This document shows positions 485 to 3,373 of a DNA stretch of 14,963 nucleotides, piece after piece. The number at the start of each line of letters is the position of its first letter. Within the stretch, counting starts at the first letter, position 1. This DNA is from a virus: UHGV virus genome UHGV-0220714; one strand, written 5' to 3'. The notes under the pieces are model-generated. The model did no database searches. It was not told the origin of the DNA and was given only the letters and a program-made list of their open reading frames with translations. The position numbers were made by a program, and so were the translations under genes.

Positions 485-745
485 TTACCGCACCTCCAGT
501 CTCCATACCGCCTGACCAATCCGGCTGGCATAGGTATCTTTGGATACTGCTCCGTCTTTAGCCAGCTCCATAAGAATTTTGCGCAAATCTGCCGAACGCC
601 ATTCCTCATCAGGAAATTCCTTCTCCATTGCCAACCGCAGATTCCAGGTTGCTATCGTGAATGGATATTCCCCGCCGAGAGCTTTCTCTTGCAGGGCAGA
701 ACGGGAACGCATCACCTGCAAAACCTTCTCTTTTACATCCATCAT
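485..745 (-). CDS. Hypothetical phage protein, 86 aa (start MMDVKEK)
   Basis: ORF-track ORF 485..817 trimmed to ATG 745-743, which has AGGAGG 5 nt upstream and overlaps upstream stop (ATGA). Confidence 0.6.
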   Translation of the reverse strand: MMDVKEKVLQVMRSRSALQEKALGGEYPFTIATWNLRLAMEKEFPDEEWRSADLRKILMELAKDGAVSKDTYASRIGQAVWRLEVR

Positions 746-1365
746 TTTGCCTCCTGCGGCGGTTCCGGTAGCGGCATCCAGTGTGATGGTATCCACGACG
801 CACCTGGAATTATCCACCCATCATTAGCGTCAGGATGCCCCGGGATGTAAGTCGCCCATTTCATTCGCCAGTCACCTTTCCTGTCAAACTCCCTGGCAAC
901 AAGAACGGCTGTTTTGGTATCCGGCATTCGCTCACTACAGCTTATCCAACCATCCGGAGTTACCGGAGAGTTGCCATCCAGCGCGTTCAACTTGTAAGCC
1001 TGGCTTACAGGTTCGGCACTATGAAGCATGGCTGCGCGGCAGGCGTTCCAGCCTGTAGCGTATGCAGCCGCTTTGCTGCTGCCTTCAACTGGCGCATCCT
1101 GCCAATACATTTCTTCCGGTACTACTGGAACGGGGGGAGCGGCGTAGACCTCAATAATTCCATTATCAACAGGCCATTCTCCATCCTTGAGATAATCACT
1201 TGTGCCGTCAACTTGCTGTTCTGCAATGTGGAAAGCACCTATTGGTTCTGCTTCCAGCGATGCCAGTGCGATTCGTGCCAGTTCCATTTGTTCGCCACGA
1301 GTAAGCCCGTTTTCAAGCGGATTTTTAATGAACAATTCAATACGTTCTTTGGTAATAGTGGTCAT
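742..1365 (-). CDS. Phage protein with DUF551-like C-terminal domain, 207 aa
   Basis: ORF track; AAGGTGA SD 8 nt upstream; Trp/Pro-rich C-terminus (WIIPGASWIPSHWMPLPEPP) typical of prophage DUF551 proteins (from memory). Confidence 0.65.
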   Translation of the reverse strand: MTTITKERIELFIKNPLENGLTRGEQMELARIALASLEAEPIGAFHIAEQQVDGTSDYLKDGEWPVDNGIIEVYAAPPVPVVPEEMYWQDAPVEGSSKAAAYATGWNACRAAMLHSAEPVSQAYKLNALDGNSPVTPDGWISCSERMPDTKTAVLVAREFDRKGDWRMKWATYIPGHPDANDGWIIPGASWIPSHWMPLPEPPQEAK

Positions 1366-1367
1366 GG

Positions 1368-1559
1368 CTATTTCACCTTAATCTCAACATTTCGCAGTTT
1401 TAGCTCCACTGGCAGGTCTGACTTTCCGGTTAAAGCTAATGCGAGATTTTCTGGAGTAATGAGAGCTGTTATTGTTTTCCCCATCGCCAGACGAATAATC
1501 ATTCGTATCTCGCGATCGTCACATGCTCCCGGTCGAACAATTGAGATTTGTCCGTTCAT
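1368..1559 (-). CDS. Hypothetical small protein, 63 aa (MNGQISIVRPG...)
   Basis: ATG 1559-1557 with AGGAGA 5 nt upstream; 1 nt after upstream stop (TGAGATG); 2-nt gap to next gene. Confidence 0.55.
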   Translation of the reverse strand: MNGQISIVRPGACDDREIRMIIRLAMGKTITALITPENLALALTGKSDLPVELKLRNVEIKVK

Positions 1560-1560
1560 C

Positions 1561-2178
1561 TCACTCTCCTTTGATGCGAATGCCAGGGGCGCGTGGCACA
1601 TTAACTTCCACGATGCGCACTGTTGGTTTGTACATCTCAATCGCTGTCAGCCAGTCAGCTCCTGTCATGCGCTTTTCCGCATCGCCATTAGTCCACTGAA
1701 CCGGTACACCAATAGCCTTCATCGCGATTTCTATTTCCCCGGCAATGGCGCTTTTTCCGCAACCAGTAAAACCAGAAACAACGACAAGAACTTCACCTTT
1801 GGCTGGTTTTATTTCCCGTGCTTCCAGTTCTGCTATGCGCTTTTTTGCTGCTTCCAGCTCAACACGCAGCTTCCCTACCGTTAGCGCAATTTCCTCGTTC
1901 TCCTGGTCGCGTGATTTGATGTATTGCTGGTTTCTTTCCCGTTCATCCAGCAGCGCCTGCACTACTTCAGGGTTGAAAGCTGCGATATAACGAGCGTTGT
2001 TCTCTGCGTTTTTCTGTTCGTCGAATCCTGGCCAGTCGACAATATCTCCGTGATGATTATCACCTGGTGTGTGTACGGCGTACGTGCCGTATTTGCCCGG
2101 CGAAATAAATGCGACCCATTCACCCTGTGTTGCCTTTTCTGCCGCATCACGCAGTGCCTGATAGTTAATCTTGCTCAC
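1561..2178 (-). CDS. Ead/Ea22-like family protein, 205 aa, GTG start
   Basis: N-terminus [23 protein letters not shown] plus central coiled coil resemble Ea22-like prophage proteins (memory); GTG 2178-2176 preceded by AAGGAGG 6 nt upstream and overlapping upstream TGA. Confidence 0.6.
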   Translation of the reverse strand: MSKINYQALRDAAEKATQGEWVAFISPGKYGTYAVHTPGDNHHGDIVDWPGFDEQKNAENNARYIAAFNPEVVQALLDERERNQQYIKSRDQENEEIALTVGKLRVELEAAKKRIAELEAREIKPAKGEVLVVVSGFTGCGKSAIAGEIEIAMKAIGVPVQWTNGDAEKRMTGADWLTAIEMYKPTVRIVEVNVPRAPGIRIKGE

Positions 2179-2621
2179 TGGTTGCCTCCTTTGCGAAGCT
2201 TCGCCGCAAAATCAGCCGCAACCTCTTTGACCATATTGGATAGCGGAGTGCCACCTCCGAATTTTTCTGAGAACATCTCTACACCCTGTGCCCTCACTTC
2301 AGCCAGGAAAGCGTCGGTGGCTGGGGTGTCAACACGGATACTGTCGCGCAAGATGAAAAATGCATTGAGCATCCCAGTCTCCGGCACTTCATCCTGATAC
2401 TTCTCATACGCATCAAGAGCCTTCATCATCTCAGGTCCGAATGGTTGAGGGTGCGCAGCCTTCAGCCCCGCATTCTCCGCTGCTAGCGCCGCGCACTTGG
2501 CCTCCGCTTCAGCAAATTTACGCACCAGATATTCAGCGTTTGTTTCGTTAACCTTTAAATCTCGTGGGATGCATTTACCTTTCAGAAAACCATCCATCTC
2601 AATTAGTGTCATTTGTTTCAT
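2175..2621 (-). CDS. Hypothetical phage protein, 148 aa
   Basis: ORF track; ATG 2621-2619 overlaps stop of upstream small ORF (ATGA). Confidence 0.6.
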
Positions 2622-2782
2622 TTCTTACCACTCCGCCACATCGCATTCAGATATTTGTTGTCATTAACAGAACCGAAACTCTTTCTCTTAAGCAATTCCT
2701 CTCTCGATGGCATTGGCTTTACGCGTTGGCGAATAATCATTTCTGCCGGAAGAATGCCGGGATTGTATGCAAGTCCTCTCAT
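2618..2782 (-). CDS. Small basic protein, 54 aa ([54 protein letters not shown])
   Basis: Hand translation of minus strand; ATG 2782-2780 overlaps upstream stop (ATGA), GGAG ~9 nt upstream, TGA overlaps next ATG. Missing from ORF track (<60 aa). Confidence 0.45.
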
Positions 2783-3069
2783 GATTTACTCTCCACGAAC
2801 TGGTCAACAGCCGTGCTAAGTGATACACCTAAAGTCTCGATATGCTGCTGAATATCCTGTAGTGTCTGCGCCTGAGATAACAGGATTTCACGGTTGCATA
2901 ACTCTTTAACCAGATGCTCAAACTTGCTGTAATAACCGATACGGCTTAGTGTTTCTTTCCCTGCATTCTCACCTTCTTTGATAATTCCTCTTTCGCTAAG
3001 AATCAGATCGTGTTTGGTTCCGGTAATAACGTATTTTCCGAGGTCGATGTTTAGCTTCATTGTTTTCAT
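2779..3069 (-). CDS. Hypothetical phage protein, 96 aa (start [13 protein letters not shown]; alternative ATG at 3087)
   Basis: ORF 2779..3219 trimmed to ATG 3069-3067 with GAGGAA 6-7 nt upstream; alternative ATG 3087 overlaps upstream stop. Confidence 0.55.
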
Positions 3070-3079
3070 GGTAAATTCC

Positions 3080-3373
3080 TCAGTCATTACTGATAGCGCC
3101 ATAGCGTGAGCGGTAATTACGCAGGCGCGGGTCAATTTCAGGGAAGTGGGTATATGTGGCTTTGCGGAATGGTCGGATTGATGTCTGGTAAATTCGCTCG
3201 CGTTCTTCTTTCTCTGCAAGCCATATACAGTGGCGAAATTCCTTTTCCTCTTTCGTTTCCTGCGGTAGCGACATTATCCGGTCGTAGTTTTTTCTGAATT
3301 TATCCAGCACCTCCGATATGGAATTGCCGGAACAACGGCGCGGGTCATCCGCACCATACAGAGGCGCTGGCAT
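3080..3373 (-). CDS. Hypothetical phage protein, 97 aa
   Basis: ORF track; ATG 3373-3371, AGGA ~9 nt upstream, 23 nt after ssb stop. Confidence 0.6.
   Translation of the reverse strand: MPAPLYGADDPRRCSGNSISEVLDKFRKNYDRIMSLPQETKEEKEFRHCIWLAEKEERERIYQTSIRPFRKATYTHFPEIDPRLRNYRSRYGAISND

Follow-up and report, generated by a model that had tools for sequence, protein, structure and literature searches.

In phage P22 (NC_002371) the early-left genes run in the order erf, abc1, abc2, orf56, eaE, orf45, eaF, eaD, eaI, eaA, eaG, eaC and xis. In lambda the exo-xis region (orf60a, orf63, orf61, ea22, ea8.5 and lambdap35) lies between the recombination genes and xis on the earliest PL transcript, and has roles in the lysis-lysogeny decision (PMC7093339, PMC10834534). 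Here we analysed a comparable chain of small genes, positions 485-3373 of a 14,963-nucleotide (nt) stretch of the virus genome UHGV-0220714; the whole stretch is referred to below as the window, and its gene map was re-derived from the sequence. This segment is very probably the distal part of the early-left (PL, N-antiterminated) operon of a mosaic P22/HK97-like lambdoid Escherichia coli prophage, an accessory region of a catalogued kind, because kil, N-like, rex, cI-type and cIII genes and a PL-like site lie upstream and xis stands at the distal end. The genes of the region, in the order from erf to xis and with lengths in amino acids (aa), are as follows:

3780-4385, minus strand: erf, Erf-type single-strand annealing protein, first gene of the recombination (Rec) module
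3397-3780, minus strand: single-strand DNA binding protein (SSB)-like gene, 127 aa, HK97 gp40 or "SSB-1b" type
3080-3373, minus strand: abc2, anti-RecBCD protein 2, 97 aa
2779-3069, minus strand: DUF5405 gene, 96 aa, Sf6 gp24 / ES18 gp45 / P2 Orf83 family
2618-2782, minus strand: DUF2737 gene, 54 aa, basic, P22 orf56 / HK97 gp38 family
2175-2621, minus strand: p148, 148 aa, EaE-like, phrog_614
1561-2178, minus strand: Ead/Ea22-like gene, 205 aa, GTG start
1368-1559, minus strand: p63, 63 aa, phrog_1222
742-1365, minus strand: DUF551 gene, 207 aa, EaA-like N-terminus and C-terminal DUF551
485-745, minus strand: p86, 86 aa, phrog_2814, last gene of the overlap chain
210-377, minus strand: p55, 55 aa, lambdap35 homolog, after a 107-nt gap that follows the chain
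3-170, minus strand: xis, excisionase gene, cut by the window end, distal limit of the accessory region

The likeness to P22 extends to strand logic, gene order, small overlaps and the end of the region at xis. Common to both are erf (75% identity), abc2 (93%), orf56, which is the DUF2737 gene (72%), an eaE-like gene, an eaD/Ead-like gene and an eaA-like gene with DUF551. Unlike P22, the window has an SSB-like gene for abc1 and a DUF5405 gene inserted between abc2 and DUF2737, while orf45, eaF, eaI, eaG and eaC have no counterpart here and the ea proteins are mosaic, with segments only in common. Phage HK633 has the order erf, gp35, abc2, DUF2737, a hypothetical gene, Ead/Ea22, a small open reading frame (ORF) and DUF551 with the same 4-nt overlaps, and its DNA was 95% identical over 51% of the query. 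The Hendrixvirinae (HK97, HK633, HK106, HK022) and Sf6 were close relatives; in Sf6 a DUF5405-DUF2737 pair is annotated, and the DUF5405 protein of the window has a counterpart at 95% identity in the Sf6 gene 24 / gene 23 region. With lambda the region shares its position between the recombination genes and xis, an Ea22 homolog (41%, N-terminal and coiled-coil part) and lambdap35 (98%). It differs from lambda in having no orf60a, orf63, orf61 or ea8.5, an unrelated Ea22 C-terminal domain (CTD), and Erf/SSB/Abc2 in place of Exo/Bet/Gam.

Upstream of the segment and on the same strand we found cIII (4779-5018), kil (4642-4794), an N-like antiterminator gene (5611-6030), rexB, rexA and a cI-type repressor gene, together with a promoter-like minus-strand site at 6174-6146, where PL is expected. 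No promoter-like or terminator-like sites were found on the minus strand within 742-3373. Terminator-like minus-strand hairpins were observed at 448-427, 416-397 and 220-201, the last of which follows p55. The left end of the window encodes the N-terminal 56 residues of the excisionase (PF07825 Exc, 112 bits). Megablast matched pieces of the segment to hundreds of phages and to 3739 of the 5426 complete E. coli genomes, with identities of 91-97%. No single phage record or complete E. coli genome in this search covered 80% or more of the segment, and the cassette combination is therefore a new mosaic of common, known modules.

The earlier note on this DNA, made from the letters alone, had described seven consecutive minus-strand genes at 742-3373 joined by four ATGA overlaps or by gaps of 1-10 nt, each with its own Shine-Dalgarno (SD) sequence. 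The seven packed genes were indeed present, with 4-nt overlaps or gaps of 1-10 nt and an SD match at each. From abc2 onward the junctions measured +10, -4, -4, -4, +1, +2 and -4 nt, the last being the junction into p86. The chain at 742-3373 therefore stands with limits that were drawn too narrowly, as the packing runs from erf to the 86-aa gene (10 genes, 4385 to 485, largest gap no more than 23 nt), and erf and the SSB-like gene overlap as TAATG upstream of abc2. Three of the ATGA overlaps (2779-2782, 2618-2621 and 742-745) were confirmed, and the fourth, at 2175-2178, reads GTGA and contains the GTG start of the Ead/Ea22-like gene. This start is supported because the Ead_Ea22 profile aligns from residue 2 and the SD of this gene is the strongest of the set (-11.6 kcal/mol). 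Duplexes with the anti-SD were predicted before every start at -4.8 to -11.6 kcal/mol, scored against a local background mean of -2.9 kcal/mol. Stop and start codons thus overlap or lie a few nt apart with the SD inside the upstream coding sequence, as translational coupling requires. Such overlaps are normal packing for a phage operon and no statistical oddity.

In gene order, an HK97-type recombination module (erf, SSB-like gene, abc2) comes first and is followed by the erf-to-xis accessory region with its DUF5405, DUF2737, EaE-like, Ead/Ea22-like, phrog_1222, EaA/DUF551 and 86-aa genes, which is the counterpart of the P22 "ea" genes and of the lambda exo-xis region. These genes would be read from one polycistronic early transcript, presumably originating at PL, and ribosomes would most likely pass from one to the next by termination-reinitiation at the ATGA/GTGA overlaps or at very short SD-bearing spacers.

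Variation among relatives was examined in 83 loci related through DUF2737, including P22 and others, and synteny in 78 IMG/VR loci chosen as close relatives of this DUF2737 allele. The order abc2, (DUF5405), DUF2737, p148, Ead, (p63), DUF551 recurs in the 78 loci, with cassettes that come and go between conserved flanks. DUF5405 is an optional cassette between abc2 and DUF2737 and was present in about 11 of the 78. Among the 83 related loci, DUF2737 starts 10 nt after abc2 in 68 and has an ATGA overlap upstream in 11, and the junction in these 11 is the same as the one made with DUF5405 in the window. On the downstream side of DUF2737, at least 76 loci have a 4-nt overlap. The C-terminus of DUF2737 varied with the gene that follows: it reads ...RSGKK(stop) with ATGA before p148-like genes, and ...RKGG[NKS]Q(stop) or ...RKGVKQ(stop) with GTGA before genes that have a GTG start (VS...), 4 of 9 of which were clearly Ead-like. 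In the window p148 ends with ...RKGGNQ(stop) and GTGA before Ead (2175-2195; compare 2618-2640), which is the same type of ending. Because the DUF2737 C-terminus co-varies with the next gene, these short junctions, each made of a C-terminal tail, an SD and an overlapping start, behave in the sequences compared as portable recombination joints, which is familiar lambdoid mosaicism. Cassettes would be exchanged by recombination at these short conserved junctions, and DUF2737, DUF5405, p148, p63 and DUF551 are most likely dispensable host-interaction factors that move as cassettes.

The 54-aa gene at 2618-2782 had been singled out as unannotated and as locked in by ATGA overlaps at both ends (2779-2782 and 2618-2621). 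Both overlaps were confirmed, and the product is basic as described (isoelectric point 10.7; 12 K+R and 4 D+E). Taken as a sign of novelty, "unannotated" does not stand, since the protein is already DUF2737 in Pfam, P22, HK97, HK633 and E. coli. It matched PF10930 at 100.4 bits (residues 1-52 of 53; cut-off 25 bits) and phrog_1117 at an E-value of 2.5e-38, and was 72% identical to P22 orf56 and 100% identical to a protein of HK106. It is annotated as orf56 in P22, in the RefSeq records of HK97 and HK633 (gp33) and as a PGAP gene in E. coli O104:H4, and at least 1000 public contigs carry the exact sequence under the name "DUF2737 family protein". Exact copies of the DUF551, p148 and SSB-like proteins were found in NCBI as ENC0431383.1, ENC0431386.1 and ENC0431390.1. 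The accession span ENC0431383-390 (eight numbers) fits the eight genes from DUF551 to the SSB-like gene, which suggests that the same chain, with the 54-aa gene called, is annotated in at least one E. coli assembly. Members of the family are stand-alone proteins, nearly all of 50-60 aa. The family is a small one that accounts, at 50% identity, for 103 clusters among 1.84 billion representatives.

Coding constraint was measured on 44 distinct 147-nt DUF2737 alleles. The ratio of nonsynonymous to synonymous variation (pN/pS) was 0.23 in frame, compared with 1.70 and 1.60 in the other sense frames, and variable sites were distributed over the three codon positions as 20/10/32. Between the window gene and P22 orf56 pS was 0.61 and pN 0.20. 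Virulent Guernseyvirinae (gp66 of Jerseyvirus SETP13, and a Kagunavirus) retain the core motif P-x-P-[ST]-REEL[LM]KRNSF...NKYLN.MW at 40-45% identity, and their gene belongs to another early cluster, in which 4-nt overlaps are again present. These comparisons show that the 54-aa ORF is a real gene on which purifying selection acts and that it is conserved in related prophages; the test on which its status as a real gene hung, namely conservation of the frame and its coding constraint, was run and came out in its favour.

That the 54-aa frame is a chance ORF, or a mere spacer that supplies the following gene with its SD and start and yields no functional protein, would fit its shortness, the truncated 28-aa allele in 6 of the 83 loci, the low confidence of the AlphaFold2 (AF2) model and the low pN/pS of 0.28 in antisense frame 1, although the latter is expected from the mirroring of codon positions. 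We regard this as extremely improbable, given the match to a curated Pfam family at 100 bits, the third-position excess that accompanies the low in-frame pN/pS, a protein identity to P22 orf56 of 72% at near-saturated synonymous sites, an SD of its own (-6.8 kcal/mol) and a motif that persists in virulent phages (Jerseyvirus, Kagunavirus), where the genomic surroundings of the gene differ. The AF2 model of DUF2737 (23-sequence alignment) had a pLDDT of 63.5 and a pTM of 0.23 with three short helices, and was too poor to serve as the basis for a fold search. In literature searches by name, "DUF2737" returned one incidental mention and "DUF5405" none.

A DUF2737 gene was located at 41521-41676 in SETP13 (locus L086), where a DUF551 gene lies at 36861-37070, and at 3441-3599 in the Kagunavirus (locus L085). 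No homolog of abc2 or erf was found in SETP13. Judged by these sequences, DUF2737 and DUF551 cassettes have been exchanged between temperate lambdoid and virulent siphophages.

The 97-aa protein at 3080-3373, which the earlier note had put forward as an anti-RecBCD candidate from its place downstream of erf and ssb, is by sequence the P22-type anti-RecBCD protein Abc2, and the proposal was borne out. It matched PF11043 at 211.5 bits over residues 1-97 of 97 (cut-off 25 bits) and phrog_656 "abc2 anti-RecBCD" at an E-value of 8e-55, and it was 92.8% identical to P22 Abc2 at the same length of 97 aa, with 7 substitutions. Against the P22 Abc2-RecBCD complex (8B1T, 8B1U) it scored 197 bits, with Pro68 kept in the sequence ...IRPF... 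at 66-69 (8B1T chain A). The substitutions (K75H, I77P, D85N and others) cluster in the C-terminal third, which is disordered in the structure. P22 Abc2 binds RecC at the Chi-recognition (inactivated helicase) domains; host PpiB co-purifies with it by way of Pro68, and the helicase and nuclease activities of RecBCD are affected only moderately, consistent with a hijack of the enzyme for Erf-mediated recombination (PMC9836394). Within the chain, Abc2 is the sole product with a known mechanism, as described for P22.

In gene order abc2 lies inside the Rec module, beside the Erf-type annealing protein and after the SSB-like gene. The erf product was 75% identical to P22 Erf over its full length. 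The SSB-like protein matched phrog_44 (single-strand DNA binding protein) at an E-value of 2e-26 and had no Pfam match; its C-terminus, ...DDSIPF, resembles the tip of bacterial SSB. The HK633 gene at the same position (gp35) is annotated as similar to HK97 Gp40, and HK97 gp40 has been classed as SSB-1b (PMC12315714). A BLASTP comparison of 11 window proteins with the P22 early-left proteins found no homolog of P22 Abc1 at an E-value of 0.01 or below. The SSB-like gene occupies the abc1 position, and the Rec module consists of Erf, SSB and Abc2 without Abc1. No Chi sites were found in the window.

With Abc1 missing from the window and its role unknown (PMC9836394), DUF2737, with or without DUF5405, could be a part of the recombination/anti-RecBCD module, for example a cofactor of Abc2 in the role of Abc1. 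Its almost constant place directly after abc2 in the 78 related loci agrees with this, as does its small and basic nature, which would suit a protein that binds nucleic acid or an acidic surface. That linkage is in part inherited synteny, however, as the loci were picked as close relatives of this allele, and no sequence or structural link of DUF2737 to RecBCD was found. P22 holds both abc1 and orf56, so that DUF2737 has not replaced Abc1 there, and SETP13 carries DUF2737 with neither abc2 nor erf. For the last two reasons the idea of an Abc1 substitute was dropped as the main explanation, and we consider a role of this kind quite unlikely. A broader proposal, that DUF2737 is a small host-targeting effector with a specific partner, such as an inhibitor or modulator of a DNA-repair or defence protein acting alongside Abc2, seems to us improbable as well; the positive indications for it were conservation, early-operon placement and linkage only.

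We return to the remaining genes of the proposed early-left accessory region. The profile searches that had been called for were run, and the proteins fell in accessory families rather than in structural or housekeeping ones. The 96-aa protein at 2779-3069 belongs by sequence to the DUF5405 family, as indicated by PF17399 (26.2 bits, a marginal score against a cut-off of 21.6), phrog_154 (E-value 2e-32), 95% identity to the product of the Sf6 gene 24 region and, in a tblastn search, 34% identity to the P2 orf83 region over 92% of the protein. Its AF2 model (pLDDT 89.7) has four beta strands and two helices, and the matches to it in BFVD were DUF5405 phage proteins with TM scores of 0.74-0.85. 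Structure prediction for DUF2737 and DUF5405 gave no functional lead. PHROG and RefSeq label DUF5405 a "replication initiation protein"; this looks like a propagated annotation and was not adopted, as we found no support for it beyond the position of the P2 gene beside gene A. The p148 protein matched phrog_614 (E-value 3.8e-48) and was 35% identical to P22 EaE over 82 residues, with no relative in Pfam, NCBIfam or PDB.

The Ead/Ea22-like protein matched PF13935 at 120 bits over residues 2-118 (cut-off 27 bits). It was 41% identical to lambda Ea22 over residues 1-133, which cover the N-terminal and coiled-coil part, and 68% identical to P22 EaD over residues 64-120. A CTD of the lambda Ea22 type was not found, the tblastn alignment stopping at residue 133, and the C-terminal part (75-205) matched a different PHROG, phrog_11761. 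Variable CTDs are the rule in the Ea22 family (PMC10834534), and lambda Ea22, whose CTD has been solved by nuclear magnetic resonance (NMR) and is dimeric, is a tetrameric coiled-coil protein that favours lysogeny (PMC10834534, PMC7093339). By homology to Ea22, the protein encoded here probably forms a coiled-coil oligomer and tips the balance between lysis and lysogeny by means of an exchangeable C-terminal domain. A Walker-A-like sequence, GFTGCGKS, was observed at residue 136 of the CTD (approximately residues 125-205; window 1564-1806, minus strand). An NTPase assignment for this domain was rejected, as P-loop matches were sub-threshold only (APS_kinase, E-value 0.03; AAA_16, E-value 0.066) and the domain is too short. 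The Ead/Ea22-like protein and P22 EaD both end in ...KGE, and in the window this tail encodes the SD of the next gene (AAAGGAGAG).

The p63 protein matched phrog_1222 over its full length (E-value 6.5e-41), and its exact sequence was present on at least 1000 contigs as "hypothetical protein". The 207-aa protein contains DUF551 at residues 139-204 (PF04448, 74.3 bits; cut-off 22 bits), and its N-terminus was 60% identical to P22 EaA; the DUF551 part was 78% identical to a gene of the virulent phage SETP13. The p86 protein, which sources name "eaa protein", matched phrog_2814 (E-value 8e-51), and p55 was 98% identical to lambda lambdap35 (NP_597778) and belongs to phrog_676. We also observed a plus-strand ORF of 349 codons at 835-1884, antisense to DUF551, p63 and Ead, for which no Pfam family was found. 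We rejected it as a gene: its codons are aligned in antisense register with those of DUF551 and Ead, where only the rare sense codons TTA, CTA and TCA would give it stops, and it is most likely a shadow ORF. An NCBIfam search with ten proteins returned no family, its sole match lying far below threshold (16.2 bits against a cut-off of 163), and searches of PDB by sequence and profile with the Ead, DUF5405, DUF551, p148 and DUF2737 proteins gave nothing significant. Apart from Abc2 and the Ead/Ea22-like protein, no lead to a function emerged for the chain products. Rfam had no match in the whole window.

Further observations concern the flanks of the accessory region. The left end is lambda-like, with the lambdap35 homolog, a terminator-like hairpin and a lambda-type excisionase, and the remaining operon is P22/HK97-like. 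On the other side, also on the minus strand, lie a RexB-like gene (6385-6822), a RexA-like gene (6853-7683), a DUF3024 gene (7835-8176) and a cI-type repressor gene (8237-8944). The DUF3024 gene sits between the rexA-like and cI-type genes and is an extra gene relative to lambda cI-rexA-rexB.

Genes in such a setting may act against host defences, and the earlier note had mentioned anti-restriction as one such role. The region next to abc2 is recognised as a phage accessory region, and in P22 the abc1 gene of that region sets off a cell-death response that depends on P4 (bioRxiv 10.1101/2023.04.06.535777); by analogy, an anti-defence role for some cassette is plausible because of these two findings. 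The stronger statement, that at least one of DUF5405, DUF2737, p148, p63, DUF551 and p86 inhibits a host defence system (restriction, abortive infection or another), draws on several features of the locus. It has the hallmarks of a phage accessory region, with variable cassettes between conserved flanks and a co-resident counter-defence gene in abc2; accessory regions have been shown to be enriched in counter-defence genes (bioRxiv 10.1101/2023.04.06.535777); DUF2737 and DUF551 are common to temperate and virulent phages; and many unrelated phages have the DUF5405 fold. No anti-restriction function was found among the chain proteins, and we would call such an inhibitor possible but rather doubtful.

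Several points weigh against reading the segment as a P22/HK97-like early-left operon whose products act as their relatives do. We infer PL-driven transcription and translational coupling from the anatomy of the sequence, and the biochemical activities of all chain products likewise from their relatives; that of Abc2 is projected from 93% identity, and Abc1, the partner of Abc2 in P22, is absent here. The Ead CTD is unrelated to that of lambda Ea22, and the pro-lysogenic role may not transfer. With the poor AF2 model of DUF2737, no particular activity is supported for this protein by the prediction. A nonsense allele of DUF2737 (28 aa, ...VKPMPSRE followed by a stop) was present in 6 of the 83 related loci, all six from IMG/VR, and the gene is therefore dispensable in at least some prophages.

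The chain is ordinary and already known: every element is in a catalogued family, and the arrangement is annotated in P22, in HK633 and, by PGAP, in E. coli genomes such as that of O104:H4. All nine chain proteins whose exact sequences were looked up in public databases (the GTG-start Ead/Ea22 protein was the one left out) were already public. The value of the analysis is mainly correct annotation. The segment also illustrates clearly how cassettes are exchanged at gene junctions in the lambdoid erf-xis accessory region. DUF2737, DUF5405, EaE-like, phrog_1222 and DUF551 proteins form abundant phage families without known function and are reasonable candidates for anti-defence or host-takeover screens, and nothing singles out the copies found here. 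Going by its similarity to the P22 system, a prophage with an Erf/SSB/Abc2 module would hijack RecBCD rather than block it, which would bear on systems that sense interference with RecBCD, such as retrons, OLD and Gabija.

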